From Mobula hypostoma (taxonomy: Eukaryota): a DNA stretch of 64,000 nucleotides. The notes beneath the pieces are model-generated. The model made no database searches, had not been told where the DNA came from, and saw nothing but the letters and a program-made list of their open reading frames with translations. The position numbers and the translations under genes are program-made. The DNA lies in NCBI RefSeq assembly GCF_963921235.1, contig NC_086108.1, forward strand, positions 49,354,001 to 49,418,000, read 5' to 3'. This document shows positions 9,898 to 58,613 of this stretch, one piece after another (position 1 is the first letter of the stretch; each line of letters starts with the position of its first letter).

Positions 9898-9933
9898 AGT
9901 CGACGTTTCAGGCCGAGACCCTTCATCAGGACT
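9898..9933 (-). ncRNA. Minimal type I hammerhead ribozyme motif
   Basis: AGTC-CTGATGA-AGGGTCTCGGCCT-GAAAC-GTC^GACT: CUGANGA and GAAA core, stem I AGUC/GACU, palindromic ACGU stem III. Confidence 0.75.
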
Positions 9934-10663
9934 AACTGAAGGAAAAGTTAGTAAGAGATTTGAAAGTGGGAGAGGGAGGTGGAGATCCAAAATGATAGGA
10001 GAAGACAGGAGGGAGAGGGATGGAGCCAAGAGCTGGACAAGTGATAGGCAAAGGGGATATGAGAGGATCATGGGACAGGAGGCCCAGGGAGAAAGACAAC
10101 GGGGGGGGGGGGAACCCAGAGGATGGGCAAGGGGTAGAGTCAGGGACAGAGGGAGAAAAAGGAGAGTGAGAGACAGAATGTGTGTATAAAAATAAGTAAC
10201 AGATGGGGTACGAGGGGGAGGTGGGGCATTAGCGGAAGTTAGAGAAGTGGATGTTCATGCCATCAGGTTGGAGGCTACCCAGACGGAATATAAGGTGTTG
10301 TTCCTCCAACCTGAGTGTGGCTTCATCTTTACAGTAGAGGAGGCCGTGGATAGACATGTCAGAATGGGAATGCGATGTGGAATTAAAATGTGTGGCCACT
10401 GGGAGATCCTGCTTTCTCTGGCGGACAGAGCGTAGGTGTTCACCAAAGCGGTCTCCCAGTCTGCGTCGGGTCTCGCCAATATATAGAAGGCCACATCAGG
10501 AGCACCAGACGCAGTATATCACCCGAGACGACTCACAGGTGAAGTGTCGCCTCACCTGGAAGGACTGTCTGGGGGCCCTGAATGGTGGTAAGGGGGGAAG
10601 TGTAAGGGCATGTATAGCACTTGTTTCGCTTACAAGGGTAAGAAGCCGAAACCTCTTCTGGTG

Positions 10664-13600
10664 ATGCCTACACCGAAGAAGTTTAAATCCTCTCTTCGAT
10701 GGGAGTTCAGTGAAACCATCTCTCACTGCTCCCCATCTGTAATTTCTTTGGCTCTTCAACTTTTTGACCACATTTTGACTCAGGCTCACTATCACAGCCA
10801 TATATCCTTTCTTGGAACATGCCTCTGTCACCAACTTACTCCAGTTGGCTTTAGGATTCGTTTCCGAGCCCCTCAATTTTGATCTTCTGAGGATCCCAGG
10901 TACTCACATTTTATTGACTCTGCCTCTCGTCGCTTCTCCCATCAAGCTCTGAAGGCGACCCTCTGTGCCATGAGGAGGTATTTGGTGTCCCTATCCCAGA
11001 CCCTCCACACCTTCGGGACACTTTCTTCGCCGTCTGTAATGGTCCTATCCGTTATTTCATCCTTCGTCGGATCCATGCCTGCAATCGCCATTTTTTTGAC
11101 TTTGTCATGTTAGGCAAAGATCGCAAGATCCTACATCTGCGGATCCCAGAGCCTGCCGGCCCTGAAGCTAGCAGGCATGAACTTCAGTTTGCCTCTGCCA
11201 TTGATCTCACCGGCTCCAATACCTCAGGGCATATTCAAAACCCAAACTCCAACAACGACCATGGACACCTTCAAAGCGATTGTGCAACCACCAACTGCGA
11301 CTCCAGCCTTGAACTCCAGGCTGGGTCTTTATGTGCTGCTGTTGTGACTCCTGTCTCCCCTTCCCCCACCAATACTCTGCAATCCCTTCTCCCTCAGATC
11401 CCATCGTCAGCTCCTGGGTACTCAGAGGCTCCATCTTCCTCTCACCCCAACCCTCCCCTCTCCACTGACACCCCCAGCCTCCCCTTCCCCCCTCTGATCC
11501 CAGCTCTCATCCATGCATGGTCTTTACCATCCCCTCCGACCTTCAACTGTCGGAGGCAGAACGCTCTGTACTCAGTAAGGTCCTCACCTTTGTCCCCCTT
11601 CGCCCACACCTCAGCGAGTTCCGTGTTCACCATGATGCGGAACTCTTCTTCCGCCGTCTCCGTCTCCGAGCCTACTTCTTCAGCAAGGACTCTTCCACCC
11701 CCACCGATGACCCCTTCTCCCATCTTCAACCCTCCTCTTCTTCATGGACACCTCGCTCTGGTCTTTTGCCTGCTCTGGATCTCTTTATTGCTAACTGCCG
11801 ACGGGACATCAACCATCTCGACTTCACTGCATCTTGTTCCCATTCCAACCTCACTCCTTCCGAATGCTCTGCTCTCCACTCCCTCAGCACTAATGCTAAC
11901 CTTACTATTAAACCCGCCGATAACGGTGGTGCTGTTGTAGTCTGGCGTACTGACCTCTACCTTGCTGAGGCTCGGCGACAAGTAGCGGATACCTCTTCTT
12001 ATTTACCCCTCAATCGTGACCCCACTAAGGAGCACCAGGCCATTGTCTCCCACACCATCACCGACTTTATCCGCTCAGGGGATCACCCATCCACTGCTAC
12101 CAACCTTATAGTTCCCACACCTCGCATTTCCCGTTTCTACCTCCTACCCAAGATCCACAAACCTGCCTGTCCTGGCAGACCTATTGTCTCAGCTTGCTCC
12201 TGCCCCACCGAACTCGTTTCTGCATACCTCGACACGGTTTTATCCCCCCTTGTTCAATTCCTTCCTACCTATGTTCGTGACACTTCTCACGCTCTTAAAC
12301 TTTTCGATGATTTTAAGTTCCCTGGCCCCTACCGCTTTATTTTCACCATGGATGTCCAGTCCCTATATATTTCCATCCCCCATCCGGACGGTCTCAAAGC
12401 TCTCCGCTTCTTTTTGGATTCCAAACCTAATCAGTTCCCCTCTACCACCACTCTGCTCCGTCTAGCGGAATTAGTCCTTACTCTTAATAATTTCTCCTTT
12501 GGCTCCTCCCACTTCCTCCAAACTAAAGGTGTGGCTATGGGCACCTGTATGGGTCCTAGCTGTGCCTGCCTTTTTGTTGGCTTTGTGGAACAATCTATGT
12601 TCCATACCTATTCTGGTATCTGTCCCCCATTTTTCCTTCGCTACATCGACGATTGCATTGGCGCTGCTTCCTGCACGCATGCTGAGTTTGTTGACTTCAT
12701 TAACTTTGCCTCCAACTTTCACCCTGCCCTCAAGTTTACCTGGTCCATTTCCGACACCTCCCTCCCCTTTCTAGATCTTTCTGTCTCTATCTCTGGAGAC
12801 AGCTTATCCACTGATGTCTACTATAAGCCTACTGACTCTCACAGCTATCTGGACTATTCCTCTTCTCACCCTGTCTCTTGCAAAAATGCCATACCCTTCT
12901 CGCAATTCCTCCATCTCCGCTGCATCTGCTCTCAGGATGAGGCTTTTCATTCCAGGATGAGGGAGGTGTCCTTTTTTAAAGAAAGGGGCTTCCCTTCCTC
13001 CACCATCAACTCTGCTCTCAAATGCATCTCCCCCATTTCATGCACATCTGCTCTCACTCCATCCTCCCGCCACTCCACTAGGAATAGGGTTCCCCTTGTC
13101 CTCACCTACCACCCCACCAGCCTCCGGGTCCAACATATTATTCTCCGTAACTTGCACCACCTCCAACAGGATTCCACCACTAAGCACATCTTTCCCTCCC
13201 CCCGCCCCCCGCTTTCCGCAGGGATCGCTCCCTTCGCGACTCCCTTGTCCATTCGTCCCCCCATCCCTCCCCACTGATCTCCCTCCTGGCACTTATCCGT
13301 GTAAGCAGAACAAGTGCTACACATGCCCTTACACTTCCTCCCTTACCACCATTCAGGGCCCCAGACAGTCCTTCCAGGTGAGGCAACACTTCATCAGTGA
13401 GTCGGCTGGGGTGATATACTGCATCCGGTGCTCCCGATGTGGCCTTTTATATATTGGCGAGACCCGACGCAGACTGGGAGACAGCTTTGCTGGACACCTA
13501 TGTTCTGTCCGCCAGAGAAAGCAGGATCTCCCAGTGGCCACACATTTTAATTCCACATCGCATTCCCATTCTGACATGTCTATCCACGGCCTCCTCTACT

Positions 13601-13704
13601 GTAAAGATGAAACCACACTCAGGTTGGAGGAACAACACCTTATATTCCGTCTGGGTAGCCTCCAACCTGATGGCATGAACATTGACTTCTCTAACTTCCG
13701 CTAA
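10664..13704 (+). pseudogene. PLE RT-GIY-YIG polyprotein, interrupted by a stop and frameshifts
   Basis: ATG at 10664 (MPTPKKF...HISFLGTCL...PVGF), stop at 10880-10882, RT in 11517-13277, endonuclease in another frame ending at 13704. Confidence 0.85.
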
Positions 13705-14001
13705 TGCCCCACCTCCCCCTCGTACCCCATCCGTTATTTATTTTTATACACACATTCTGTCTCTCACTCTCCTTTTTCTCCCTCTGTCCCTCTGACTATA
13801 CCCCTTGCCCATCCTCTGGGTCCCCTGCTCCCCCCTTGTCTTTCTCCCTGGGCCTCCTGTCCCATGATCTTATCATACACCCTTTGCCAATCACCTGTCC
13901 AGCTCTTGGCTCCATCCCTCCCCCTCCTGTCTTCTCCTATCATTTTGGATCTCCCCCTCCCCCTCCCACTTTCAAATCTCTTACTAACTTTTCCTTCAGT
14001 T

Positions 14002-14037
14002 AGTCCTGACGAAGGTTCTCGGCCTGAAACGTCAACT
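14002..14037 (+). ncRNA. Minimal type I hammerhead ribozyme motif
   Basis: AGTC-CTGACGA-AGGTTCTCGGCCT-GAAAC-GTC^AACT (one stem I mismatch). Confidence 0.65.
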
Positions 14038-14876
14038 GTACCTCTTCCTAGAGATGCTGCCTGGCCTGCCTGCGTTCACCAGCAACTTTGATGTGTGTTG
14101 CTGTATCTTAGATGTGCTTCCTGTTTTTCGCCACAGGGATAGCCATTGTCTGGTTACACATTAACTGCCTCCTCCCAGTGACCTGAAGAGTTGCTCTGAA
14201 ATGCACAGTGCATGTTCCAAAGACAATGCAGGCAGCAACATCAGCCATTATTCATAGTCTCTTTTTAAGCTTACAAGAGTGCAGTTGGGCACTTTGGTCA
14301 GTAGGCCAAAGGGCCTGTTTCCGTGCTGTATAACATTGTGAATTAGTGAAGAGACTTGCCTCTCAAACACAGCTAGTTTCCTCTGTTCCAACATCAAAGT
14401 CAATCTGACCTGAGTCATCAAGCTGCAGTATGCAGACAGTATTTGCTTGCTTACACATTTGGAGACAACATGAAGTCTTTGGACTTCAGTTTGGATTGGC
14501 TCATCCTTTCAAGCTTCATTTATTGCAAGGTCTGCAGATATTAAACTTGCTTTATCAGCTACTACTCGATCCATGGACTGTAGTATCTTGGAAGTAATTA
14601 GCAGTTTAAATATGCCATTTTATTGAATGGTTTAATTATGCAGTTTGTACTTGGATATAAAGCACAAAACTATATGTTCTTCCATTTCAATTACAATTTA
14701 TACTCCATGTTAATCAAAGTTTTATATAAATCATTGCAGAAAATGGGCCGTTGTGAATGTTTTACAAATGTATTTGGTTATACTGACAGTTCCTGGTGGA
14801 TAATTTCCTGACTACAACAAACTATAATTATGCATGTGATAGAGTGCTAACGTAGTTATTCTTTGCTCACTTACAG

Positions 14877-15007
14877 GAATGGGTGACAGCCACTGATATC
14901 AAAGTGACCTTGAATAGGTTGAACACCTTTGGGGATGAGGTTTTTAATGACCCGAAGGTTCTGAAGTCCTACTATTATGCTATTTCAGACTTTGCAGTTG
15001 GCGGAAG
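14877..15007 (+). CDS. LAMC1: Laminin subunit gamma-1, internal coding exon (end of LN domain; probably exon 3)
   Basis: ttacAG|GAA...GGA AG|GTactt; 131 bp; encodes [44 protein letters not shown], which I recognise as nearly identical to vertebrate laminin gamma-1; phase 0 in, phase 2 out. Confidence 0.95.
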
Positions 15008-15053
15008 GTACTTTTGTTTTCCCATTACTTCTGACAATTTTTTTTTTAAAAGT

Positions 15054-15389: not shown

Positions 15390-15670
15390 GGGGGCTATGC
15401 TACATAGCTGTTTGCACAGCGCCACAACAGCTTGGGGCATCGGAGTTCAGAGTTCAATTCCAGCGTCCTCTGTAAGAAACTTTGTATGTTCTTCCCAAGT
15501 CCAGGTGTGTTGCTGGGCAGCGTGGCTAGAAGATCCTATTCCACACCATATCTCTAAATAAAGTTCCCAGGATAAGGCTTTCCTTTCCAGAACATCAAAC
15601 ATGTCCTCCTCCTTCAAAGAACGGGGTTTCCCTTCCTCCATCTTTGATGCTGCCCTCACCCTCATCTTTC
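15390..15670 (+). mobile_element. SINE fragment followed by a PLE RT fragment
   Basis: tRNA-like B box (GAGTTCAATTCC), then sequence similar to the PLE at ~12930-13040 (SFFKERGFPSS). Confidence 0.5.
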
Positions 15671-17585: not shown

Positions 17586-18689
17586 AATATGAAAAACATA
17601 AAAATAGAGATATCAACATTCTCTATACTGAGAATATTGAATGTTACTAAACCTAAAATTATTGGGTGAACTCGCATAAATGTTGTGGGCATTGGGACTA
17701 ACTATTCACTCTTCACCACAGATTTACAAAAATTCACACAAAATGACATGGTGGCCTTTACACTAAATAGGAGTCTAAAAGATATTTGTTCAATATTCTT
17801 TAAATGAGAGAAATTTTTTTCCCTGTCCACCTCCCCACATTCAATTCTCCCATTTTTATTTATTACCTTTCCTAATATAGTTAATCACCTAATATAAGCA
17901 GTTTATTTCCAAGTTAAGTATGTATAATTTTGTGGTGTGGATGAAGTGGAAGTATGTGGCCTCTTGACAGTAAAATTGCATTTATTTTGGCAGAAGTCAA
18001 AACATTACTTTGACACTGTTTTCCCACAATTTTTGTATTCAAGGGCAGAATATATGGAATAGATCTCCGAAACCTATCTGGCCACACAAGTCTGTGTTGC
18101 AAATTAATTTTTGGCACTTTAGAGAAGGCGTATGTGGAATGCTGAATAATTTGTCAGCCACTATAACATTTCTTGAAGCCAACATACAGGACTGATATTT
18201 TGAATAATAATTTAACAACTGCAATAAAAACTACTGTGCATTAAAGATACTGGCAGGAATAATACCATCAGTATCAAACCAATAATTATTTAAAGGTTCA
18301 AAGGTTAATTTCAAAGATTCAAATTGAAAACTCGTTCTTCAAAATTCTGGCCCAGAGCAGATCAATGGAATAGCAATTAATAAAATTACTGGTTTTAATT
18401 TATCTTCATTTTTTTTCTTATATTACTTTATTATCCCCTTGTGCCATAATCCCATATTCTTTATGCTCTAACCTTTTTTTTTGTTCTGTTCTCCCCTTCT
18501 CTCCTTTTCTGTATCATAGAACTTGTTTATCTTTAGCTTATTGTAGCTCTGAGTTCACTGATCAGGAATCAAAGCTGTTTCTCTCTATATAAATTCATAG
18601 CACTTACTGCACTACCTGTCTTTTTAATAAGGAGTTTACTAGTCAACTCAATATTTCAAGAACTTTCAGTTCTTTGGCCTAGATCGCCT

Positions 18690-19790
18690 TTTTCTAAACT
18701 ATGGACATCTAGTCCCATAACACTTCCACCCCCCTTCAAGGAGGGCCTTTCTGTTTCTTTCTGCACAAGAGACCCAAGTAGTTGCCCTTCAGCACCACAT
18801 CCTCCATCAGGTGGAGCTGGTTCTTGCCCTCAACAATTTCTCTTTTGGCTCCTTCCACTTTCACCAAGACAAAGACGTCGCCATGGTCACTTGCATGGGC
18901 CCTGGCTATGCCTGTTTTTTTGTTGGCTATGTGGAACAGTGCTGATTTTAAGCGTACGATGCTATATTAAGGATTGCATTGGTGCTGCTTCCTTTGCCCA
19001 TGCTGAGCTCATCAATTTCATCAACTTCACCTCCAGTTTCCATCTTGCCCTCAAATTTACTTGGCCCATCTCTGACACTTCTCTTTCCCTTCTCAGTCTC
19101 TCTTCTCAGTCTCTCTGCCTCCATTTCTGGAGGCAGGCTATTCACTGACATCTTTAAAAACATGTCTTTCACAGCTAGCTTGGCTACACAACTTACTAAC
19201 CCATCACTTGCAAAAATGCTACTCCCTTCTCTTAGTTGCTATGTCTCCGCTGCATTTGTCCTTGGAATGAGGCTTTCCATACTATAACATCTGAGATAAA
19301 TGAATAAGATTTCCCTTCTATCTCCATCAATACTGCCCTCATCTACATCTCCATTTACCACACATCTGTCCTCACCCCATCGTCCCACCTTCATAACAGA
19401 GATAGGTTCCCCTTAACCTATCAGCCACAAGCCTTCATATCCAGTGCATTACTCTCCATAACATCCACCATCTCCAATGGGATCCTGACACTAAGCACAA
19501 CCAATCCACCCTGCCCAGGTTTCTATAGGAATTGCTCTCTACCTGACTCCTTTGTCCACACGTCCCTCTATGCTGATCCCCCTCCTGGCACTTATCCTTG
19601 CGAGAGTGCCAGCTGCTAAAGCTGTCCCTACACACCATCATTTCAGGGCCCCAAACTATCCTTCCAGATGAGGCATCACTTCACCTATGGGTCTCGTCTA
19701 TTGTATCCGGGTGCTCCCGATGTGGCCTCCCCTACATCATTGTGGCGACACAGATCAGAGGACTGATTTATCAAGCACCTTCACTCTGCC
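18690..19790 (+). mobile_element. Old, degenerate PLE copy
   Basis: Colinear similarity to 12330-13550 (YIKDCIGAAS...HLALKFTW). Confidence 0.75.
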
Positions 19791-23784: not shown

Positions 23785-24599
23785 ATCCTCAGCCCCCTAC
23801 ATTCATGACTGTGTGGCCAGATTTTTTCTTAACTCCATCTGCAAGTTTGTAGATAATACCACCATCATGGGCCATATCTCGAATAGCAATGAGTCAGAGT
23901 ACAGGTCAGTGATAGAGAGCCTGGTGACATGGTGTCATTGACAACAACCTTTCTCTCAATTTGTCAGCAAAACAAGAGCTAGTCATTGAGCTTTTCATTG
24001 ATCCCTTTCACCAATCAACGTCCCGGCTCTTTACTTCACTCCCTCCCCATTTCACTTATCACCTACCACCTTATAGTTTTTCCTCTCTTTTCCCCAGCTT
24101 CTTGCTCTGGTCTTCTCATCTGGCTTTCCAGTCCTGATAAAGGCTCTCGGCCCAAAACTTGGACTCTTTACTCTTTCCATAGATGCTGCCCGGTCTGCTG
24201 AGTTCCTCCAGCATTTTGTGGGTATTCGCTTCAAGTTACAATGAGTGAGCATTGCCTTTAGCCTGTCCTGGTACAATCATGCCAACTCCAGGATGAAGAA
24301 AGCTCACCAGTCCCTCTACTTCCTTAGGAAGCTAAATAACTATTTACTGATGCACAATAGATGATGTTCTGTTGGGTGGACAACCTACCAGGAAAACGTG
24401 CAGTGACGAGGGCTCTGGCACTGAGTCTAGCTCCGTGGCTCAAAAGGGAAGGGGTGGGGGGAAGAAGGGAGAATGGTGGTAATAGGGAATTCATTAGTTA
24501 GGAAGCAGCCAGATTCTGTGAGCATGAAAGAGACTCCAGGATGTTATGTTGCCTCCCTTGTACCACGGTCAAGGACTTCGTAGATTGGGTCCACATCAG

Positions 24600-26957: not shown

Positions 26958-27410
26958 CGAGGGGTGATTGATAAGTTTGTGGCCTAAGGTAGAAGGAGTT
27001 AATTTTAGAAAACCTAGCACATTTATTTTTCAACATAGTCCCCTCCTACATTTACACATTTAGTCCAGCTGTCATGGAGCATACAAATCCCTTCTTTGTA
27101 GAAGTGGTCCACAGCAGGGGTGATTGATAAGTCCGTGGCCTAAGGTAGAAGGAGATGAGTTATACAGCTCTCATTACATGCACATGCAGTTCAACTCTTT
27201 GAGTGATTATGCAGAAAGTTAGAAGTTAATAACTCATCGAGGGCGATTGATAAGTTAGTGGCCTAAGGTAGAAGGAGATGAGAGGAGAAGAAGGAGAACT
27301 TCAAACTTGCTGCATAATCACTCAAAGAGTTGACCGGCATATACATGTAACGAGAGCTGTACAACTCATCTCCTTCTACCTTAGGCCATGAACTTAACAA
27401 TCACCCCTCG
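26958..27410. mobile_element. Mariner-derived MITE with internally reiterated termini
   Basis: TA|CGAGGGGTGATTGATAAGTTTGTGGCCTAAGGTAGAAGGAG ... CTCCTTCTACCTTAGGCCATGAACTTAACAATCACCCCTCG|TA; sits within a CR1 remnant (~26640-28480). Confidence 0.85.
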
Positions 27411-28162: not shown

Positions 28163-30245
28163 AAGGTAGATGCAGATACGGTGTTTCCCCTAGCTGGAAT
28201 ATCTAGAACAGTCAAAACAAGGAATCAGTCATCGGGACTGTGACAAGTAGAGATTTCTTCACTCAGTGATTTTGAATCTTTGGACTTCTGTCCTGAAGGG
28301 ACTGTGGGAGCTCAATTCCTGTGTGTATATCTCATTGTAGGCAGAGATCTATAGATAAAGGGAGTCAAGAATTATGGGGTATGTGCAGGCAAGTGGCACA
28401 AAGATAAAAGATCAACTGATCTTATTGAATGGCTGAGGAAGTAGAAGGAACCTACAAGGTGGCCTATACCTGCTCCAACACCTTTTTGTCTGTAAAGAGA
28501 ATCAGCACTGATATGTGTGAAATAACAACTGTATTCTTCACCTCAGTTTGTTCACAATAATTTGCAGTAGAAAAATAATCAATTTATTTCGTGAAAATTG
28601 GTCTCTAAATTAGAGAGGCAGAAGAAAGCATAAATGTGGTTTGAAAGCTACAGGAAGGGCTCAAATGTGATGAGAGAGGTTAATGTGGCAAGTCAGGGAT
28701 TTGAAGGTGTGGACAAAAGATTCTAGATTTAATGTATGGGGTGCTAGTGAAATTTGGTATTGGGACTACACAAGAATTGAGGGCAACATGTTCAGGTTTG
28801 CATTTATGATATATTAAAAAAGAGTTAATCATCAAAATGTTAGTAAAGTTGTAAATGAGGTTCTCAGACAAATTTTGTGCCATGAAAATAAATTTGCCAT
28901 AGTAAGAATTAGAATTATAGAGCCTGGAAGCAGGCTCTTCATCCCAACTGGTCCATGCTGACCAAGATACCAATCTAACCTCGTCCCTTTTACCAGTGTT
29001 TGGCCAATAACCATCTAAGCCTTTCTAAACTAGGTACCAGTCTAATTGTCTCTTAATATGCTTTCCAACATGCTTGATGGATGTTATTTTCAGTTCTACT
29101 CTTAGTTCAGCTAATTGATAGATGCTCAGATCGACTCCTGTTAGATAAAGAAGAAATTTCAGTTTTATCAATTCTTGCATAATATAAAAATAGGTTTGAA
29201 AGTTGCGCTTTATGGCTGCCTGCAAAAGATTAAAGTCCAAGGAATGTTGCCAACGATTATCCTTATCAGTATCTGTACAAGTTGGATCTTTTCTAAGTGT
29301 GTTGCCAAATAAGTAAATAACAATTCAGGAACTCGATATATTTCTACAGTGAATTAAAGGATATTGTTAATATTTATAAATTCCAAATTGATCCCATAGG
29401 TCAATTTTTTTTAAATTAGGCAGCTTTTGTTTACCTAGGTAACTATACAGTTAACATCTGTAATTTATAAAGGAATTTAATCTTTAATCAAGATAAGGGC
29501 TTGAAAATGTTTTTTAAAAACTGGAGTGCTTACAATCTGATCTTAGAACAGCAGGAAACTAAAATGCATTTAGTGATGTAGTTAAATGAAAGTCTCGCTG
29601 CCTTTCTGATTTTTATGACTAACAGTTGATTATGCGGAGAATACTAAGAGTGTTTGGGAAGGAAGGTGAGGACAAAATAAATTCTAATGTCTACTTAGAT
29701 TTGTTAAAGCCGTAACAGAGACACAGCTGAGAGAAGGAGCTGGCAGCTCAATGTTCCAAGACACAGATGCCATGGGCATGACAGGTAGAAGATGAGAGGG
29801 GAACAAAACCGCAGTGCTTGAAAATTGTATTTGTTGGGGGGGGGGAGGTCATCCAGTGAGGCCAAAAGGGTAAAAATTTGAAGAGAGGAAATTCAGCACA
29901 CGAAACGCTTGGTGAACTCAGTGGGTCAGGCAGCATCTGTGGAGGGAAATTGACAGGCGATGTTTTGGGATGACAACATTCGCCACATCTGGAAAGAAAG
30001 AGGTGAGATTGCCAGTATAAAAAGATATGGGGAAGGATGAAGCAAGAGCTAGTGGCTGATAGGTGAATGCAGGTGAGAAGAGAGAGAAAGGCAGGTGAAG
30101 GAAGGGAAGAGTAGGAATGATATAAGCAGCTGGAAAATGGCAAATAGAAGTGATGAAGGGCGAAAGTAGATGACATCTGGTAGGAGAGGACAGGGCTGAG
30201 AAGAGGAAATGGATCAAAGTTCAAAGTAAAATTTATTATCAGAGT

Positions 30246-30532
30246 CTCTCTCTCTCTCTCTCTCTCTTCGACTGTCCATCAATTTTCAATGTTGACTGAG
30301 GCCTGGGCAAGGTAGTATGGAAGACCAGCAATTGCCCATGCTGCAAGTCTCCCCTCTCCACGCCACCGATGTTGTCCAAGGAAAGGGCACTAGGGCCGAT
30401 ACAGCTTGTCGTCGCAGAGCAATGTGTGGTTAAGTGCCTTGCTCAAGGACACAACACGCTGCCTCAGCTGAGTTTGAACTAGTGACCTTCAGATCACGAG
30501 ACTGATGCCTTAACCACTTGGCCACGTGCCAC
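30246..30532 (-). mobile_element. tRNA-derived SINE with (GA)n tail
   Basis: 11-bp TSD ATTATCAGAGT (30235-30245, 30533-30543); head GGCACGTGGCCAAGTGGTTAAGG (A box); core TGTGTCCTTGAGCAAGGCACTTAAC; homologous to 44834-45139. Confidence 0.85.
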
Positions 30533-38500: not shown

Positions 38501-39870
38501 GCAACTCCTTACGGAGATGCAATGTTGTGTCTATCAGCACTGCAGTATCTCCTTCTTTGTGATGGATAGCTACTTGGTTGGTTACTGAGGGCATTGTCAA
38601 GTAAGATTTTCCTTTGGTTTTCCACTGCCTCCTGCAGTCCTTGTTCAGCAATCGTATCCTTCAAGAAATGTCCATCTCGCTTATTTTTAATGTCCCCTAC
38701 CAGAGTACATTATGTTCTGGGTAGCCCCATTATGGCTTGCAAGTGACAGTCATTGTTAAAGAGCATTGTTAGAAATCTCTCTAACTTATCATTGGTTGCT
38801 GTCAACTTAGCATAGGTTTGGCTTGACATTAAACTTGAATCTGTTCACTTACTTTTGATGTCTTGTCCATGTGCATCTAGTTGTCCCCATTCCATGGAAG
38901 CTGCGAACTTTTGTTCAGATAACCTCATTAAAATCATGTCTGGTGCTTACTTGTCAAAATGCATAGGTAGGAAATTATTATGGAGGAGTTGAAAATAAAT
39001 TTGGGTTTGCTGGGCATGAGTCTTTCTGTTAAGTTTCTCGTAAGTAATTTTTTTAAAATTTAAGTACAATAATGTTGGAAGATCTGGCATCCTCAAAGCT
39101 TTGCTGGACTGGCATATTTTCTACCTTATTGAAATTAATCCTCTTAATATCCCAGTACTGTATTATTAGATATTTTTCTTCTAAGTAGTATAATAAATCT
39201 ACCTATGAACCTGATTTAAAATTAAATGGAGAGTAGAAACAGGGCTCAAGTGAGTTTGAGGGAACTGTGGAAAATGGGGGGCTTATATGAGCTTGAAGGG
39301 AGCATGGGAAATGGCACCCTTTGAGCTAGATGCCGAATTGTTAAGATTTCTGAACAATTGAATAGTAGATTATTGGAGTTTCATTGTGTAATATTTTAGA
39401 TGAATATTTAAAATGAATGCTGCAAAGTGGTGCTGGAAGTGAAGAAAGAGCCGATCGGAAGATCCCGTCACGTGTATACTCAGTGGTAGAATCAAGAATT
39501 TATGGCACTTTGAGGAGCCATTCAACGTATCAGTCATATCCATTTAAGCCCAAAGAATGTTATTGAGACCATTTATTCAACTGAGCTGGTAACCATAAGG
39601 TGATCTAAATATTGCTTTATTTGGAAGGTTTGAAAAGAAAAACAATTGTTCCTTAATGCCTCAAAATACTTTGCTGCCAATAAAACACATTTTAAATCAC
39701 TATCACTAAGACCTGAGAGAAAATGTAGTCAGCCATATTCCACAATGTGATGTGCAATGTAAAGGTTACTTAATAGATTTTGAAATGTTGATAGAGAGGT
39801 AAGCATTGGCCAGTGTTGCTTAGTAGTAATTCTGCTAATTAAGTTGCATTTCAATTTCTGCTCTTGGCAG

Positions 39871-40059
39871 CTTGTAATTGTCATGGCAAATCTGCGGAAT
39901 GCTACTTTGATGCTGAGCTTTACCGAGCCACAGGACATGGTGGTCGCTGCCGCAACTGTATTGACAACACGGACGGTCCTAATTGTGAGAGGTGCAGAGA
40001 CAATTTCTACCGCCAGGGTCCAGAAGCTCCATGTTTACCTTGCAATTGCAGTCCTATTG
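39871..40059 (+). CDS. LAMC1: Laminin gamma-1 exon (LE repeat 2), GC donor
   Basis: ttggcAG|CT TGT...ATT G|GCaagt; 189 bp; [64 protein letters not shown]; only the GC donor keeps frame with the next exon. Confidence 0.92.
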
Positions 40060-42230
40060 GCAAGTATAAAACTGTTCCTTTTTTTTAAAAAAAAGTATAC
40101 ATTTTGGTCAACTTTGCAAAATTTTGCTGCTCTTATAATGCACTTCTGATTGTTTAAAACTTTTGATTACAATTAATTGTCTCATTGAGCAAGAAATATA
40201 AATTAACAAATTGATGTGGATATCATAATTATTCCTTTGAAATGATTTAGGATGATTTAGGTTCACTGGTTTTTACATGCACCTCTGTATTAATGATTTT
40301 CTTAGACAATATATTATTAAACTTGTTTAACTTGGTATGGATACTGCAATTTCCTGTTTACCACAACTCTCAAACTTGTGCTAAGTCCTTTGCATAAATG
40401 CAATTTCAATCACTTTGGCTTTAACCGAGCATTCAGAAGAGGCTTTTGGCTTTAAGTTCTCTTACAGAACTCCTTTTCACCAATGCTACTATCCCAGCAC
40501 TCACCCCTTGAGCAACAGTCAGTTTGCTGGAGGAGCTCAGGGCTGAGCAGCAACTGTGGGGTTGGGGGGTGGGGGTGGAGGGGAGGGAAGGAGTAGAATC
40601 AGAGTCAGGTTTATTATCACTGACTTGCATGGTGTGAAATTTGTTCATTTGTGGCAGCAGTACAGTGCAAAGGTACAAAATCACTATATATTAAATAAAT
40701 TAATAAATCATGCAAAAATAAAAGGAATAAGGAGGAGGTATTCAGGAATTTGATGGCTGAGGGGAAGAAACTATTTCTGAATTTTTGAGTATGGGTCATT
40801 AGGCTCCTGTACCCCCTTGATACTAGGAACAAGAAGAGGGCATGGCCTAGATGGTGAAGGTTTTTAGTAATGGGTGCTGCCTTCTTGAGGCGCACCTTCT
40901 GAATATGTTCTTAATGGTGTAAGGAGTTGTGCTCGTGATGGAGCAGAGTAAGTCTACAAGTCTCTGCAGCCTGTTGCAATCCTGTGCATTGGAGCCTCCA
41001 CGCCATGCTGAGACGAAACCAATCATTTTGGATCGAAACTCTGAAATCCAGATGCAGGCCTTCAACCTGAAATTTTGACAGTTTCTTCCCCCCATCCCCA
41101 GGGATGGTGCTTGCCCTGTTGAGTTTCTCTAGCTGAATGTTGCACCAGATTCCAGGATCTGCAGTCTCTTGTGTCTCCATAGGTTACAATACTCTGCAGT
41201 GATTGAGATTGCCTGGGGAAAGGCCTAATCTTTGTAGATTTTCGGCACCTCATCCAGTTTGGACTGTGCATGATAAAATTTTGCTGCCTGGGGGAAAAAC
41301 ATAACTGATTGTCACTATAAACCCTCCACCCATCCCCCCATCTGATAGTCCTCCCGTACACTACTGCCCTTCTGACCTGTTATTCTCAACAAATCCAAGT
41401 ACATACCTTCATTGTAATGCGAATCATTCAGATTCACCAGAGAGATTATCCAGAGTAAATTGTAGTTGTATCAAGTTGATGTAGCAAGTGATGATGAAGA
41501 GGACATAGAAGTTGGAGTAAGTTGTTTTGCTCTCCAACTCTTACCACCGTGTGGTTAGAACATGTTTGGTTGATACCTCAGCTCCATCTTAAACTGTAAA
41601 TACTCCTGGCTGGCAACTTGTTTTGATTTTGGATTTTAAATTATTAAATTATTTAAATTTTCAGACGTGCCAAAGTCAAGTTGTTGGTATTCATTCTTCA
41701 GCAATCACCATTATACATATGCTCTCACGCAGTCATATGCTATATTTTTAATATTACTAACTGGCTGTTAACATTTGTTGGCTTTATTCGGGTTTAATTC
41801 AGTTTTGTGAGTAGGGTTTTCCTCCCTAGCTATGGCCAAATTTAGTTCAAATGTAGTGGGGGAACCCATAGATCTATTTAAATTGTTACTACAGTTGCTC
41901 ATATATTTTGTTGCACTTTTGAGAAAAGTTGATCGACATTTTTGAAAAAAATACTATCATAAAAATGTTTCTTGACTTTATCTTCTCATCATAATATTCA
42001 CTAATTTTTTCCAGATCTAGATTCAGACTCGTTTGCATCAGTAGCACTCTGTTGCTTTAGAATGCAGTTAATTTTTTTTGCATCTGGTATTTTCATTTTG
42101 TTCACTTTCCTATCCTTTCAGAAATCAGGAGTCCTGTTTGCTATCCATTTTCTTTTTCTGTACACCTTGACTTTGAAAATAGTTTGCCTTCAATTTGGGG
42201 AACTAGTATTTGCTTCTGTTTGCTTTCAAG

Positions 42231-45139: not shown

Positions 45140-45849
45140 CTGTGGTTTCTATTACCATGCTGTTAAGCACTGGAATGCAGCTGTGAGAGGCAAGTACTTT
45201 TTTTCCCCTTGCTATCATTAACTATTGGCACAATCCTCATCATCTCTGCCTATCTTTCCTTAAGTCAATCCTTTAGAAGCTTATACGTTGACCATACTCT
45301 GGTTCTACATGGCTAAGTGTCACATTTTTATTTGATAGCATTTCGTGCAATGTCTTGGGAATATTTGTTATATTAATGGATGTGTATAAAATTAACTTGT
45401 CTTTGTTGTTATTGCTTCAACTAGTTCACTGCTGGAGATTTGCATATTCCTTCTAATTTCCATATTAAAAATGTTTCAGATGAATTCCTTCCTTAGTTTA
45501 ATTGTTATTCCTTTATCATTCCTTTGATCTTAGGCAAATCTCTACATTTTCACTCTATTTTGCCCCTCCTTCATCCTCATGATAGTATCTTATGTCTTAA
45601 AGTGAAGAAATATTATGTTTCTTCTGATCAGGAAGGGAGGCGGCATATTTGTCTAGTTTTGGGGAGCCTATTTGCTGTCAAGCAAAGTAAGAGGTGTTGA
45701 GATCAGCATTGGTGTGGCTAAAATAATTAATAGTGATCAAGGTTTAAATGAAAACAACAGGAATTCTGCAGATGCTGGAAATTCAAGCAACACACATCAA
45801 AGTTGCTGGTGAACGCAGCAGGCCAAGCAGCATCTATAGGAAGAGGCGC

Positions 45850-45885
45850 AGTCGACATTTCAGGCCGAGACCCTTCATCAGGACT
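45850..45885 (-). ncRNA. Minimal type I hammerhead ribozyme motif
   Basis: AGTC-CTGATGA-AGGGTCTCGGCCT-GAAAT-GTC^GACT. Confidence 0.65.
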
Positions 45886-48091
45886 AACTGAAGGAAGAGT
45901 GAGTAAGGGATTTGAAAGCTGGAAGGGGAGGGGGAGATGCAAAATGATACGAGAAGACAGGAGGGGGAGGGATAGAGCCGAGAGCTGGACAGGTGATAGG
46001 CAAAAGGGGATACGAGAGGATCATGGGACAGGAGGTCCGGGAAGAAAGACGGGGGGGGGGGTGACCCAGAGGATGGGCAAGAGGTATATTCAGAGGGACA
46101 GAGGGAGAAAAAGGAGAGTGAGAGAAAGAATGTGTGCATAAAAATGAGTAACAGATGGGGTACGAGGGGGAGGTGGGGCCTAGCGGAAGTTAGAGAAGTC
46201 AATGTTCATGCCATCAGGTTGGAGGCTACCCAGACGGAATATAAGGTGTTGTTCCTCCAACCTGAGTGTGGCTTCATCTTTACAGTAGAGGAGGCCGTAG
46301 ATAGACATGTCAGAATGGGAATGGGATGTGGAATTAAAATGTGTGGCCACTGGGAGATCCTGCTTTCTCTGGCGGACAGAGCGTAGATGTTCAGCAAAGC
46401 GGTCTCCCAGTCTGCGTCGGGTCTCACCAATATATAAAAGGCCACATCGGGAGCACCGGACGCAGTATATCACCCCAGTCGACTCACAGGTGAAGTGATG
46501 CCTCACCTGGAAGGACTCAGTTCCCCTCTACTACCACTCTGCTCCGTCTAGCGGAATTAGTCCTTACTCTTAATAATTTCTCCTTTTGCTCCTCCCATTT
46601 CCTCCAAACTAAAGGTGTAGCTATGGGCACCCGTATGGGTCCTAGCTATGCCTGCCTTTTTGTTGGGTTTGTGGAACAATCTATGTTCCGTGCCTATTCT
46701 GGTATCTGTCCCCCACTTTTCCTTCGCTACATCGACGACTGCATTGGCGCTGCTTCCTGCACGCATGCAGAACTCGTTGACTTTATTAACTTTGCCTCCA
46801 ACTTTCACCCTGCCCTCAAGTTTACCTGGTCCATTTCCGACACCTCCCTCCCCTTTCTAGATCTTTCTGTCTCTGTCTCTGGAGACAGCTTATCTACTGA
46901 TGTCTACTATAAGCCTACTGACTCTCACAGCTATCTGGACTATTCCTCATCTCACCCTGTCTCTTGCAAAAACGCCATCCCCTTCTCGCAATTCCTCCGT
47001 CTCCGCCGCATCTGCTCTCAGGATGAGGCTTTTCATTCTAGGACGAGGGAGATGTCTTCATTTTTTAAAGAAAGGGGCTTCCCTTCCTCCACTATCAACT
47101 CTGCTCTTAAACACATCTCCCCCATTTCACGTACATCTGCTCTCACTCCATCCTCCCACCACCCCACTAGGAATAGGGTTCCCCTGGTCCTCACCTACCA
47201 CCCCACCAGCCTCCGGGTCCAACATATTATTCTCCGTAACTTCCGCCACCTCCAACGGGATCCCACCACTAAGCACATCTTTCCCTCCCCCCCCCTCTCT
47301 CTGCATTCCGCAGGGATCGCTCCCTACACAACTCCCTTGTCCATTCGTCCCCCCCATCCCTCCCCACTGATCTCCCTCCTGGCACTTATCCGTGTAAGCG
47401 GAACAAGTGCTACACATGCCCTTACACTTCCTCCCTTACCACCATTCAGGGCCCCAAACAGTCCTTCCAGGTGAGGCATCACTTCACCTGTGAGTCGACT
47501 GGGGTGATATACTGCGTCTGGTGCTCCCGATGTGGCCTTCTATATATTGGTGAGACCCAACGCAGACTGGGAGACCGCTTTGCTGAACATCTACGCTCTG
47601 TCCGCCAGAGAAAGCAGGATCTCCCAGTGGCCACACATTTTAATTCCACATCCCATTCCCATTCTGACATGTCTATCCACGGTCTCCTGTACTGTAAAGA
47701 TGAAGCCACACTCAGGTTGGAGGAACAACACCTTATATTCCGTCTGGGTAGCCTCCAACCTGATGGCATGAACATTGACTTCTCTAACTTCCGCTAGGCC
47801 CCACCTCCCCCTCGTACCCCATCTGTTACTCATTTTTATGCACACATTCTTTCTCTCACTCTCCTTTTTCTCCCTCTGTCCCTCTGAATATACCTCTTGC
47901 CCATCCTCTGGGTCACGCCCCCCCCCGTCTTTCTTCCCGGACCTCCTGTCCCATGATCCTCTTGTATCCCCTTTTGCCTATCACCTGTCCAACTCTCGGC
48001 TCTATCCCTCCCCCTCCTGTCTTCTCCTATCATTTTGCATCTCCCCCTCCCCCTCCAGCTTTCAAATCCCTTACTCACTCTTCCTTCAGTT

Positions 48092-48127
48092 AGTCCTGAC
48101 GAAGGGTCTCGGCCTGAAACGTCGACT
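48092..48127 (+). ncRNA. Minimal type I hammerhead ribozyme motif
   Basis: AGTC-CTGACGA-AGGGTCTCGGCCT-GAAAC-GTC^GACT. Confidence 0.75.
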
Positions 48128-48559
48128 GCGCCTCTTCCTATAGATGCTGCTTGGCCTGCTGCGTTCACCAGCAACTTTGATGTGTGTTGCAAGGTTTAAA
48201 TGAGATAGTTTCTTCTCCTTTTTCAAATCAATGAGTCAGTTGAAGTTAGGCAGATATCAGAGTTTGTTAGGTACAATTATAACTGCCAACCCTAAATGGG
48301 GAAGTAAGTGGTTCAGCCAAGATCTAGATACAACTCTACAGGACAGAAGGATAGAACAACCCAAGGCAGAACTTTCCTGATAACAAAGAAGGACAAGAAG
48401 ATATGCAGAGAAAGGGAAACATGGCATACGCCAGGATGATAATTGGGCTGAAGCTGGAAAGATCATAACACAAAATGTTAAAGGGAAAATGAGCCCACGT
48501 GTGTATGTGAAAATTGGCTGGCAGATCATAACAGTGAATCCACTGACTGTCTCATGGTT

Positions 48560-52660: not shown

Positions 52661-52770
52661 AAACACGAGATTCTGCAGATGCTAGAGATCTAGAACAACT
52701 CAGCAGGCCGTGCAGCAACTGTGGAGGGGAATAAATTGTCGACAGTTCAGGCTGAGACCCTTCATCAGGA
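52661..52770 (-). mobile_element. Short PLE 3'-end fragment with decayed hammerhead
   Basis: Minus strand CTGATGAAGGGTCTCAGCCTGAACTGTCGAC plus the same terminal tail as the young PLEs. Confidence 0.7.
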
Positions 52771-54279
52771 TTCAAGCCACTCTGTTCTGTCTTCTATATC
52801 CAATAGAAAATGTTAGAAATTCATGGAACACTCTGCCATTAAAAATGACATAATATGGTTAGCTGTATTTGCTACGTTTCCTCTCACCCACTGGGCTGGA
52901 CTCCTAATGTTCTCTCAGCCCCACCCCAGAATTTACAGCCTTTCTGGTTTCTCCTATTTCTAGCTCTAGCTCCCTTGAACTACTCCAGCTAATCTGCTGA
53001 CAGCTCGGCTTCTTTTTTCCATCTCCATGTTAGCTGCAGTTGAGACCTGATTTCTCACTCCTGGTGCTGTTCCTGCTCTTTCAATTCCAGTGCCATTTCT
53101 ACTCTCAAATAATCATCCCATCTTGGAACCATGACACTAACCTTGGCTTCCTCCTCAAAAGTACTGGAATCTATTCCGGCCTCTCAAGATTCTTGCCCAT
53201 CTTACCTGTATTCATCCAGTCAGGTTGCCAATGATGGTATGCATTATGTTCTATTTTTCTTGCTATTTATTAATTTTTAGGCATCAGTGATAAAGTCTAG
53301 AATTTATCAGCCATTTTTAATTATCCCTGAGAGAGCTGACCTTCTGACCCTACTCTGTTTTGCTGAAGATGGAATTTGTTTTGACAAAGTGACCAAAAGG
53401 ATTATTGAACTTTACCAAGTGCTCTTGGGGTTGCACTTATCCAGACAAGCAGAAAGCATTCAATAATCCTCCTGATTTATGTTTAGTAGATGGTAGAATA
53501 TTTATGGGATGTCAGGAAATGAATTACTTACCTTAGGATACCCAGCCTTGGACCAGTTATGGTAGACACACTATTCATGTGCTGGTCCAATTGAATTTCT
53601 CGTCAATAGAATGTTGATGGTGCTATTTGGCAATCATAATGCCATTGTATGTCAAAGATTAGTTACCATATTCTCTTTTATTGTGAATGGTTGTTAGCCT
53701 GGAACATTTGTGATGCAAATGAAGTTTGTCACTTAGGAGCCCACTGACAAATATAGGCCGCCTTCATACAGACATTAGCTGCTGTTTGCTGAGAAGTTAT
53801 GAATAGTATTGAACATTGCACAATGATCAGTAGATATTCCTCTTTGTGACCTCATGGCAGAAGGTTATTGATCAGTTTTACTAGAGCTTTTTTATGCCAT
53901 TTTTGGTCAAATTCTACCTTGACATATAGGGTGGTCACTGTATTTCGCCTCTGGACAGGTTTGGTGAATGCCTTTGATCTAAAACTGAGTAATCCGGATG
54001 AAACCTACAAAGGTTAATGATGAGTACACATTACTTAATATCACTTCCCATCACTTTGCAGATGATTGCGATTAGGCTGACTGATCCGCCGGTTTGGATT
54101 TGTCTTTTTTTTGCTAGCACTGCACAATTTTCACACTGGTGGGTGGATACTCGTATTGTAACTGTAGTGAAGTACATTGTTTGAGATACAGAATATCCTA
54201 GAGCACATTTTCAGCACTACGTTTAGGATATTGTCTAGTGCCATAGTCTTTGCTGTACTCTCCACTGTTTCCTGCAGTC

Positions 54280-54482
54280 TTCTTCTCTTCTTCGTCTTGT
54301 TTTATGGCGGTTGGCACCCAGCTTAACGGTGCATTACCACCACCTTCTGCTCCGGAGTGTGCAATAGACGTACATTCTAAATCCCTTCACCCTATCTCTA
54401 TCTCTATCTCTATCTCTATCTCTATCTCTATCTCTATCTCTATCTCTATCTCTATCTCTATCTCTATCTCTATCTCTATCTA

Positions 54483-54537
<55 letters not shown>

Positions 54538-54667
54538 ATCTCTCTATCTCTCTCTCTATCTCTCTCTCTCTATCTCTCTCTCTCTATCTCTGTCTCTCTA
54601 TCTCTGTCTCTCTATCTCTCTATCTCTTTATCTCTCTATCTCTCTATCTCACTCTCTATTTCATTCA

Positions 54668-54711
<44 letters not shown>

Positions 54712-56042
54712 AACCTACACTTTATCCTTCCATCTTTGGCCATCCTAGCACTCTATTCCTGCTTATCCATTATATCCTATAAAAAAAATCCCTGTACCCC
54801 TTAAGAAAGCTAAAAATACCCTAACCTGTGCTCCCTCACCCATGCCCAGCAACCCTTTTAATGTGAATTCTTGCACCCCCAGATCCCTTAGATTAATTCT
54901 CATCATCTCTCTCTATCCCATACTTGCTGCGACTCAACTACATGTTCTACTGACTCCTTTTCCTGACATTCCTCAGTTTTCCCTATCGTTTTCAATGTTT
55001 TGTTTAACGTACAGTGCCCCAGCCTTAACCTAGTCCACACAGTTTCCTCTCTTCTGTATCGACTACCTATCCTAGTAGCTGCAACACTTTTTTTGTATTT
55101 GATATAAATGCCTCCCTTTCCCCTCCCTGTCCCATCTTTCTTTCCACATTTGGTTGATTTTTTTCCCAGATTACACACTTAACTTCTGCTTTACTGATAC
55201 TAATGTGCTTTTCTATATTTTCCTTCTTTAACGCCCTCTTTGCCAACTCATCCACCCTGTCATTTCCCTTCACCCCTACATGTGCTGGAACCCCTAGAAA
55301 TTTTATCTGACCTCCCTGATTTGCAATTCTTGTGACTGACTGAAGGACTTCATAAAGTATATCATGTCGACTGTTTGAGTGAAAAGACCGGAAACTTGCT
55401 AGAACTGGGGATGAATCTGAGCATATCAACACTTTGACTTGTCTAGCTTTCTCCACCGATTGCAACGCAGCCAACACTGCCAGCATTTCCACTGTATACA
55501 CCCCTAATTTATTAGATGTTCTTCTGCTGATTCCAACTTCTTTTGCTGGTATAGCCACCCCAAACCCTATCACTCCTGTTTCAGGTTCCTTAGCACCATC
55601 CATATAAATCTGATTATAATCACTATACTTTTCCATCACATGACAGTTAAATGCACTGACCAAATCAGTTTTATATTTTCCTATCCTTTTTACCTCGAAC
55701 AAATGCCAGTCTATGTCAGGCCATACAAGCTTCCATGGAGCTACAACCGGATAAACTACTGAAGGACTTATCCTTAGATCAAACACTCCACATTCTTTAG
55801 CAATATCATTCCCTACCCGACTAAAGTTATCCCTCTGAAACCTCCCATTTTCCCAGCGCTCCTGCAACACTCCTTTAACAGGGTGAGAATCATTGTGCCC
55901 CTGCAAATTAGCCCGGTAGTTTGCCATCAATTACATCATTCTTAGTTCCAAAGGCATTACTCCCATTTCTACCCGTAGGGCTGACACTGGTGATGTTTTA
56001 AAAGCCCCACTGCACACTCTCAAAGCCTGAGCCTGAATTACA
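54280..56042 (-). mobile_element. 5'-truncated I/Nimb-like LINE with RNase H domain
   Basis: ORF 55930-55067: YMDGAK...E.LAV..AL...ICSDS...VPAHVGVKGNDRVDELAK; then RLRLGH..LN...C..C.E.ESVEH; (GAA)n-like tail; TSD TGCAGTC (54273-54279, 56046-56052). Confidence 0.85.
54392..54708. repeat. Compound microsatellite (CTATCT)n / (CT)n / (CA)n
   Basis: Directly visible. Confidence 0.97.
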
Positions 56043-56943
56043 TCTTGCAGTCATATGATGTAAATTGACTTGGTTAAGACTTGCTTCTCTGGTGCTTGGT
56101 AACTAAAATTAATCATCCACTTGGCACTTCTGAACATGATTGAAAATGGTCCTAGAGTTACCATTTCCTAACGCAGTAGTGTAGAGCTTTGAGAATTTTG
56201 TTGTTTCTAGTATTGTAACTGGGACAGAGGTCATTCTCAACCCAACTTTTGGCATGGTTGAGCACAACATTCTCATCTGCTAATCTTGTACCATTGTTCA
56301 CAAGGTGGGACTGCAATCCCGTTTCCAGTCTTTTCTGTCTAATCATAACCAGAGAATCAGTAACTAATAATGAGTTTTCTTCCATTATGTTGTTTCCACT
56401 GGTGTTCCTAAAGCTCCTGTCTTTGCCTTCTAACTGTTTCTCACTTTTAATGTCCTTCATCAATACACTGCTGTCATATTTCCACAAGTAAGCAGATAGT
56501 ACAAAGTTCTGCACTTTAACTCTCAATTGACAGCCAGCTTGTTTGACATACAGTAACAGGTTTTCTCCAACCAAATATCTGGAAGCCTCTTGCTTTTGTC
56601 TGTGGAGCCTGAAACAAACACTGTTCCCTTTTCAAATATTTCAAACTAATCCTACATCTACATAATCTTGGTATCATGTTTGATCTTGCAAGGAACTTGC
56701 AGACCACATATTTGAGCCATCAGTGAGACCACCTTTTTTTAAATTTCTGTTTCAACTGTTGATCCACTTTAATATCATGTTTGCTAATAATTCAATAAAG
56801 CATTTTTGGACTTGAGCGATGCTAGAAGTGACAAATGAAAATTGTTAACACGAGGAATTCTGCAGATGCTGGAAATTCAAGCAACACACATCAAAGTTGC
56901 TGGAGAACGCAGCAGGCCAGGCAGCATCTCTAGGAAGAGGTAC

Positions 56944-56979
56944 AGTCGACGTTTCCGGCCGAGACCCTTCGTCAGGACT
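56944..56979 (-). ncRNA. Minimal type I hammerhead ribozyme motif
   Basis: AGTC-CTGACGA-AGGGTCTCGGCCG-GAAAC-GTC^GACT. Confidence 0.7.
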
Positions 56980-58577
56980 AACTGAAAAAAGTGCTAGTAA
57001 GAGATTTGAAAGTGGGAGGGGGAGGGAGAGATCCAAAATGATAGGAAAAGACAGGAGGGGGAGGGATGGAGCCTAGAGCTGGACAGTTGATTGGCAAAAG
57101 GGATATGAGAGGATCACGGGACAGGAGGCTATGCCTGCCTTTTTGTAGGCTTTGTGGAACAATCTATGTTCCAAACCTATTCTGGTATCTGCCCCCCACT
57201 TTTCCTTCGCTACATCGATGACTGCATTGGCGCTGCTTCCTGCACATATACTGAGCTCGTTGACTTCATTCACTTTGCCTCCAACTTTCACCCTGCCCTC
57301 AAGTTTACCTGGTCCATTTCCGACACCTCCCTCCCTTTCTAGATCTTTCTGTCTCTATCTCTGGAGACAGCTTATCTACTGATGTCTACTATAAGCCTAC
57401 TGACTCTCACAGCTATCTGGACTATTCCTCTTCTCACCCTGTCTCTTGCAAAAATGCCATCCCCTTCTCGCAATTCCTCCGTCTCCGCCGCATCTGCTCT
57501 CAGGATGAGGCTTTTCATTCCAGGATGAGGGAGATGTCCTCCTTTTTTAAAGAAAGAGGCTTCCTCTCCTCCACCATCAACTCTGCTCTCAAACGCATCT
57601 CCCCCATTTCACGCACATCTGCTCTCACTCCATCCTCCTGCCACCCCACTAGGAATAGGGTTCCCCTTGTCCTCATCTACCACCCCACCAGCCTCCAGGT
57701 ACAGCATATTATTCTCCGTAACTTCCGCCACCTCCAACAGGATCCCACCACTAAGCACATCTTTCCCTCCCATTCCCCCTGCTTTCCGCAGGGATCGCTC
57801 CCTACGCGACTCCCTTGTCCATTCATCCCCCCACATCCCTCCCCACCGATCTCCCTCCTGGCACTTATCCTTGTAAGCGGAACAAGTGCTACACATGCCC
57901 TTACACTTCCTCCCTTACCGCCATTCAGGGCCCCAGACAGTCCTTCCAGGTGAGGCAACACTTCACCTGTGAGTCGTCTGGGGTGATATACTACGTCCAG
58001 TGCTCCCGATGTGGCCTTCTATATATTGGCGAGACCCGAGGCAGACTGGGAGATCATTTCGCTGAACACCTACACTCTGTCTGCCAGAGAAAGCAGGATC
58101 TCCCAGTGGCCACATATTTTAATTCCACGTCCCATTCCCATTCTGATACATCTATCCACGGCCTCCTCTACTGTAAAGATGAAGCCACACTCAGGTTGGA
58201 GGAACAACACCTTATATTCCATCTGGGTAGCCTCCAACCTGATGGCGTGAACATTGACTTCTCTAACTTCCGCTAATCCCCCACCTCCCCCTCATACCCC
58301 ATCCGTTATTTATTTATATACACACATTCTTTTTCTCCCTCTCCTTTTTCTCCCTCTGTCCCTCTGACTATACCCCTTGGAGTTTTTCTGGGTTTTTCTC
58401 CCCCCTCCCCCTTTTCTTTCTCCCTCGGCCTCCTGTCCCATGATCCTCTCATATCCCTTTTGCCAATCAACTCTACAGCTCTCGGCTCCATCCCTCCCCC
58501 TCCTGTCTTCTCCTATCATTTTGGATCTCCCCCTCCCCCTCCCACTTTCAAATCTCTTACTAGCTCTTCTTTCAGTT

Positions 58578-58613
58578 AGTCCTGACGAAGGGTCTCGGCC
58601 GGAAACGTCGACT
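58578..58613 (+). ncRNA. Minimal type I hammerhead ribozyme motif
   Basis: AGTC-CTGACGA-AGGGTCTCGGCCG-GAAAC-GTC^GACT. Confidence 0.7.

Follow-up and report, generated by a model that had tools for sequence, protein, structure and literature searches.

Minimal hammerhead motifs in three broken Penelope-like elements, apparently copied from uncut RNA

Results

Three elements and six motifs

The window analyzed here, a 64,000-nucleotide stretch of contig NC_086108.1 (positions 49,354,001 to 49,418,000; all coordinates below count from its first letter), contains three broken copies of a Penelope-like element (PLE), designated E1, E2, and E3 (Table 1). In each, a short minus-strand arm is joined head-to-head to a longer plus-strand arm. 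Close to the outer end of every arm lies a 36-nt motif that is, judging by its letters, a minimal type I hammerhead ribozyme motif. All six motifs were found where the initial annotation had placed them, and the hammerhead core that it described (CUGANGA ... GAAA ... NUH) is present in all of them. The exact string it gave recurs letter for letter in four motifs and fails at 14002 and 45850. Stem I (AGUC/GACU) has four base pairs in five motifs and one mismatch in 14002, where a G>A change affects the first base of the stem I 3′ strand and a G>T change lies in stem II. The loopless palindromic stem III, ACGU, is likewise kept in five, the exception being 45850. All six had been called near-intact; only 9898 and 48092 have the best form of the family. 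The reported 13-nt stem-loop is best read as a stem II of 4 bp with a loop of 4 nt, preceded by a bulged A. The bulged A with a stem II of 3–4 bp is found in five motifs and is altered in 14002.

The loose pattern CTGANGA-N8,30-GAAANNTH matched the window eight times, with 1.37 matches expected and none of 100 shuffles reaching eight, which excludes a chance motif. Six of these eight matches are the PLE motifs; being copies of one repeat, they represent one observation and not six independent ones. A search of the window against Rfam at E ≤ 5 gave four matches, none of them to a hammerhead family, as would be expected for a motif without stem III, and a metagenome scan with the family pattern gave no matches.

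Table 1. Coordinates of the three elements, their hammerhead motifs, and related features of the window
Feature	Position	Strand	Remarks
E1, whole element	9801-14101		
E1 left target-site duplication, 10 bp	9791-9800	+	repeated at 14101-14110
E1 short inverted arm	9801-10642	-	C-terminal endonuclease, 3′ untranslated region (UTR), hammerhead, downstream segment, tail (about 9801-9833)
E1 short-arm hammerhead	9898-9933	-	G-U at 10.1-11.1 (best form); cut predicted after 9902
E1 long arm	10643-14101	+	nearly whole open reading frame (ORF), without 5′ pseudo-long terminal repeat (pLTR); homolog residue 1 aligns at 10664; reverse transcriptase (RT) 11469-13277; endonuclease to 13704
E1 long-arm hammerhead	14002-14037	+	damaged: stem I mismatch beside cut site, stem II change
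E2, whole element	45752-48189		
E2 left target-site duplication, 14 bp	45738-45751	+	repeated at 48190-48203
E2 short inverted arm	45752-46517	-	with tail
E2 short-arm hammerhead	45850-45885	-	palindrome broken (ACGU to AUGU), CpG-type change
E2 long arm	46517-48189	+	5′-truncated inside RT, frameshift before endonuclease, without tail
E2 long-arm hammerhead	48092-48127	+	best form; predicted cut after 48123
Candidate 3′ splice site (crude descriptor)	48050-48093	+	branch-point-like motif, pyrimidine tract, YAG just 5′ of stem I
E3, whole element	56847-58674		
E3 left target-site duplication, 14 bp	56833-56846	+	repeated at 58675-58688
E3 short inverted arm	56847-57129	-	with tail
E3 short-arm hammerhead	56944-56979	-	G-G at 10.1-11.1, in common with partner arm
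E3 long arm	57128-58674	+	5′-truncated inside RT, frameshifted, without tail
E3 long-arm hammerhead	58578-58613	+	G-G at 10.1-11.1
Older relative of hammerhead and downstream module	24127-24226	+	core decayed
Older relative of hammerhead and downstream module	52661-52778	-	GAAA box changed
Older decayed relative	29888-29985	-	nhmmer E 9e-12
Older decayed relative	41044-41133	+	nhmmer E 4e-9
Older decayed relative	35948-36042	+	nhmmer E 1.5e-5

Insertion structure and arm ends

E1–E3 are dead insertions that mark three single insertion events. Each has its own target-site duplication and its own arm junction, which rules out an assembly artefact; among 20,000 random position pairs, equal matches of at least 10 nt occurred in 16 and of at least 14 nt in 13. 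All three targets are AT-rich. At the junction, the arms share 1–2 nt in E2 and E3. The two arms differ at 45 of 808 sites in E1 (5.6%), 13 of 730 in E2 (1.8%), and 10 of 247 in E3 (4.0%), and no element has an intact ORF, owing to truncation or frameshifts (in E1, stops in the N-terminal region and a shift of frame between RT and endonuclease), so that the elements can be called young, as they had been, only in a relative sense. In the short arms of E1 and E2, the 5′ truncation points (10642 and 46517) lie 9 and 11 nt upstream of donor-like GTAAG/GTGAG motifs, which is probably due to chance; that of E3 does not.

All six arms run 65–102 nt beyond the predicted cut site. In all three elements the short (left) arm ends 101–102 nt and the long (right) arm 65–68 nt past it, and the short inverted arm carries a tail of 34–36 nt. 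The templates were therefore uncut (or re-ligated) RNA, as cut RNA copied from the same start sites would have yielded a cDNA of 65–102 nt that lacked the motif's 5′ portion. Hence the 3′ end that is inserted is not determined by the ribozyme, which contradicts the earlier reading of it as an RNA-processing module in so far as it was meant to make that end. Nor could the two motifs of one element pair up as a dimer within a single transcript, since they lie head-to-head on opposite strands and form no tandem in cis. Since both E3 arms share the G-G change at pair 10.1–11.1, it was most likely present in the source, which still transposed.

Base pairing and folding

Pair 10.1–11.1, usually a conserved G-C in hammerheads, is G-U in four motifs and G-G in the two of E3; G-C was found there in two older window copies. 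The supplement of PMC4209133 has G-U at this pair in several rows of published minimal hammerheads, and G-G was not seen among the examined rows of its supplement file 2. Folding of seven monomeric stretches of 61–101 nt gave z-scores from -0.27 to 0.39 and the hammerhead fold in none. The downstream segment (z from -0.41 to -0.68) has no special stability.

Encoded proteins and classification

The elements have the domain order of endonuclease-bearing (EN+) PLEs, with RT followed by a C-terminal GIY-YIG endonuclease. The RVT_1 match was below the Pfam cut-off, and GIY-YIG matched in one of the three endonuclease stretches. A CX4CxxC linker occurs in all three long arms, the CCHH motif is present, and a CX2-5CxxC linker was found in 76 of 82 endonuclease-bearing homologs. 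The label Neptune-type given by the initial annotation fits the linker and the CCHH motif, which are also a trait of Nematis; as a clade label it is putative, the comparison having been made by eye with Neptune1_Nv in the supplement of PMC8557442. Among the best 120 of 8000 candidates, the closest named proteins come from Mobula (87%), Hypanus (84%), and Chiloscyllium (68%), followed by marine invertebrates. The carrier is probably a very abundant Neptune-like PLE of a cartilaginous fish, most likely a ray, given that the closest matches are from rays.

Abundance, subfamilies, and older copies

The family is extremely repetitive: 248568, 230048, 99322, and 18073 contigs from four runs (three organisms) aligned to 9770–10900, although the summed contig depth is not taken here as a copy number. 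In each run, the largest loose ends among the 24 of 4712 rows listed fall at 9896 and 9933, at the two edges of the motif, and among the 15 of 1107 joints listed, some link 9929–9933 to 10235–10269, skipping the 3′ UTR. We take these alignments to reflect further subfamilies in which the ORF end and the motif are retained and the sequence between and beside them differs; this pattern favours selection on the motif in source elements. At 9800, a further loose-end row (477 contigs in one run, flanked by unrelated AT-rich sequence) indicates that elements commonly terminate at the end of the tail. One contig in one run joins 9933 back to 9823, which may reflect a retrozyme-like tandem unit of 111 nt with a hammerhead, or else misalignment.

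Of the older relatives in Table 1, the copies at 24127 and 52661 were in the training set of the profile, for which the best E value in five shuffled windows was 0.27; two weaker matches (E 0.05 and 0.08) were left out. Older PLE fragments about 66–72% identical to E1–E3 (RT to linker; endonuclease end) lie at 18664–19728 (+), 15565–15667, and 31036–31158 (-).

Splice-acceptor-like site and two-template signal

A branch-like motif, a pyrimidine tract, and a YAG 4 nt before stem I occur in five of the six arms, the E3 left arm being below threshold. The older copy at 24130 has a splice-like site at the AG of stem I, and that at 52770 has none. The crude descriptor was passed by 110 of the 8651 AGs in the window, and the whole UTR is pyrimidine-rich, which makes this null generous. 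In other subfamilies, too, the loose-end consensus at 9933 points to a stretch of pyrimidines reaching the AG, with an agreement of only 0.39–0.48. Among the 15 of 1107 joints listed, none had splice-type ends and none linked the tail to the ORF start. An intron ending at helix I is described for Penelope of Drosophila virilis (PMC4209133).

The arms of E1 differ at five non-CpG sites for which both letters are known in other elements, with 1.19 expected (P 0.008); the same test, which was post hoc and one of three, gave 1 site against 0.24 expected in E2 and 0 against 0.38 in E3. Three of the five sites are common polymorphisms in the contig runs. This suggests that the E1 arms may derive from two templates. 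Because they also share rare letters, conversion, switching of templates, or a tandem source whose copies are unequal would explain them equally well.

Other features of the window

A decayed element, which we take to be L1-like, occupies 4349–7894 (-), with an ORF1-like frame (7292–7894), an Exo_endo_phos domain (6187–6588), and an RT (4349–4858). At 55067–55930 (-), a frame of 287 aa that contains an RNase H domain (E 5e-12) is probably a piece of another retroelement. At 30459–30531 (-) there is a tRNA-like sequence above the Rfam gathering score (31.8 bits), possibly the head of a short interspersed element, and it is adjoined by a 101-nt repeat found at 30308 and 44904. A small element at 26962–27408 has a direct repeat of 79 nt and an inverted one of 112 nt (27116–27227, 27297–27408). 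A long microsatellite array of TCTCTA/TC, with CA repeats after it, spans 54330–54730, and a 121-aa open frame at 39784–40149 (+), without a Pfam match, is a possible host exon.

Discussion

The class of motif, its location, and the layout of the insertions are already in print. The statement of the initial annotation that PLE terminal repeats carry minimal type I hammerheads agrees with the consensus for pLTRs of metazoans published by Cervera and de la Pena (2014; PMC4209133), and the window motifs resemble these hammerheads in CUGANGA, the unpaired base that separates positions 9 and 10.1 ahead of stem II, GAAA, the palindromic 15.2–16.2 (C-G) without loop 3, the short stem I, and the U-rich 5′ flank. 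Motif pairs on opposite strands are reported there too, and the Acropora Neptune row has an identical core and CGUC cut site. In contrast, stem II is shorter in the window (4 bp) and is closed by G-U or G-G instead of G-C; cartilaginous fish do not appear among the examined rows of supplement file 2 of that paper. We found no literature on this PLE family in cartilaginous fish; Repbase and Dfam were outside the search, so it is possibly catalogued.

Inverted pLTRs, tails, and target duplications are known for PLEs (PMC3846280, PMC8557442), and E1–E3 share with those insertions the inverted 5′-truncated copy at the 5′ end, the one-sided tail of 30–40 bp, and a duplication of about 10 bp. They differ from the layout described there in having no direct 5′ pLTR, in bearing the tail on the short inverted arm in all three cases, and in two 14-bp duplications. 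With the Poseidon element PAc of Anolis carolinensis (PMC11167929) they have in common two ends about 35 nt apart past the hammerhead, AT-rich targets, and an uncut template. PAc has no Zn-finger linker, whereas the window elements have one; its ORF starts inside the hammerhead, whereas in the window the ATG frames beginning at or beyond the motif reach a stop after a few codons; and its start region is AC-rich, whereas that of the window elements is GU-rich. RT, the CX2-5CxxC linker, and the C-terminal GIY-YIG with CCHH agree with the Neptune clade (PMC8557442, Fig. S2), with spacing like that of Neptune1_Nv, but the (TA)n microsatellite targeting given for Neptune was not seen, the window targets being merely AT-rich. 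Non-LTR retrozymes, reported in one chondrichthyan genome, also carry a type I hammerhead of PLE origin (bioRxiv 10.64898/2026.07.22.740005). The six motifs, unlike theirs, sit in coding PLE fragments and not in tandem repeats, and we rejected a retrozyme identity: the arms are inverted, carry ORF sequence, and form no non-coding tandem units.

According to our analysis, the best explanation, to which we give a probability of roughly 85%, is that the motifs are the minimal hammerhead of the pLTR of a Neptune-like PLE, that the elements were inserted from uncut templates, and that the window copies are passengers. The RT-endonuclease would make a staggered cut, and both target ends would prime cDNA synthesis at two internal start sites, 34–36 nt apart and downstream of the hammerhead. 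Both cDNAs would pass through the uncut hammerhead, stop at variable points, and be joined head-to-head. For the Anolis element, RT starts at two internal sites, which explains the tail, and both target strands are cut and extended (PMC11167929). Self-priming on an antisense template, favoured in PMC3846280, is a possible alternative to two-end priming. In our preferred scheme, the active source would be a partial tandem, in which cleavage by the ribozyme would probably be slow, confined to dimers formed through ACGU, and assisted by protein; slow, dimer-only cleavage is described for minimal hammerheads (PMC4209133, PMC6765202), and the Anolis hammerhead cleaves only with protein (PMC11167929). 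Such cleavage would free or trim the unit RNA at the upstream pLTR and would not make the integrated end. The six window copies would then be decaying neutrally and be unlikely to cleave in place.

Several results weigh against this explanation. G10.1-C11.1 is found in none of the six motifs, and neither a tandem source nor a 5′ pLTR was seen in the window. None of the nine stem pairs shows a two-sided, compensatory change in the 11 window copies, which are few, related, and decaying, and there is no clear excess of conservation among the six motifs, of whose 36 columns 5 vary, against 33 of 149 upstream and 7 of 61 downstream. In addition, the active dimer scores -11.5 kcal/mol for 9898 and 48092, against -26.7 and -30.3 kcal/mol for the best competing dimers, and that of 14002 scores +9.1 kcal/mol. 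Because nearest-neighbour energies omit the contacts and stabilisation of the core, these model values indicate competing folds, not inactivity.

The role of PLE hammerheads is described as still unsettled (PMC8557442). In the model of PMC4209133, which is also the reading of the initial annotation, the hammerhead is an efficient, essential module that cuts RNA into units, possibly circles, serving as insertion templates. Its retention as a block across subfamilies in the contig alignments would suit such a module, as would the universality of the hammerhead in canonical PLEs (PMC8557442), and a circular or re-ligated unit would likewise leave an intact site in the cDNA. We nevertheless regard this as unlikely: the site is read through in all six arms, the source of E3 most likely already had G-G at 10.1–11.1, the window holds no tandem, and catalytic mutants of the Anolis element insert unaffected in vitro (PMC11167929). 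It is similarly improbable that the motif no longer cleaves and persists as a structural, protein-binding, or splice signal near the RT start sites. The lack of G10.1-C11.1, the weak 4-bp stem II with two G-U pairs, the success of competing folds, and a downstream segment as invariant as the motif itself all point in that direction, but the best copies keep every core letter and the palindrome, G-U at 10.1–11.1 occurs in published minimal hammerheads (PMC4209133), and related motifs cleave as dimers (PMC4209133, PMC6765202).

That the six copies function in place, cutting read-through host transcripts, is highly improbable, even though two of them have the best form and the very many other copies could act as partners in trans. 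Each insertion offers one sense motif per strand, four of the six motifs are damaged or non-canonical, and no host gene was identified in the window; furthermore, the inverted arms of a read-through RNA (250–810 nt) could form a duplex that buries the motif. A further idea, quite unlikely as a whole, is that the 5′ strand of stem I is a conserved 3′ splice acceptor in elasmobranch Neptune-like elements and that the head-to-head insertions arise through a protein dimer able to copy two distinct RNAs, in line with the different family haplotypes on the two arms of E1. If true, stem I would be exchanged or lost when a pLTR intron is spliced out, which would divide the RNA between spliced messenger and unspliced, uncut template, and the copying of two RNAs by a dimer would provide the geometry that a dimer-only ribozyme also needs.

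In conclusion, the elements of this window agree, at the genomic level, with what was found in vitro, namely that uncut RNA serves as the template of PLEs and that copying begins at two internal sites, and they add a family of cartilaginous fish to a known class. Although six copies do not settle the question of what the hammerhead does, a vertebrate family of high copy number, in which ends, tails, and subfamily variants can be counted, is well suited to addressing it, and the many dated copies per genome would make the splicing and two-template ideas testable from sequence alone.

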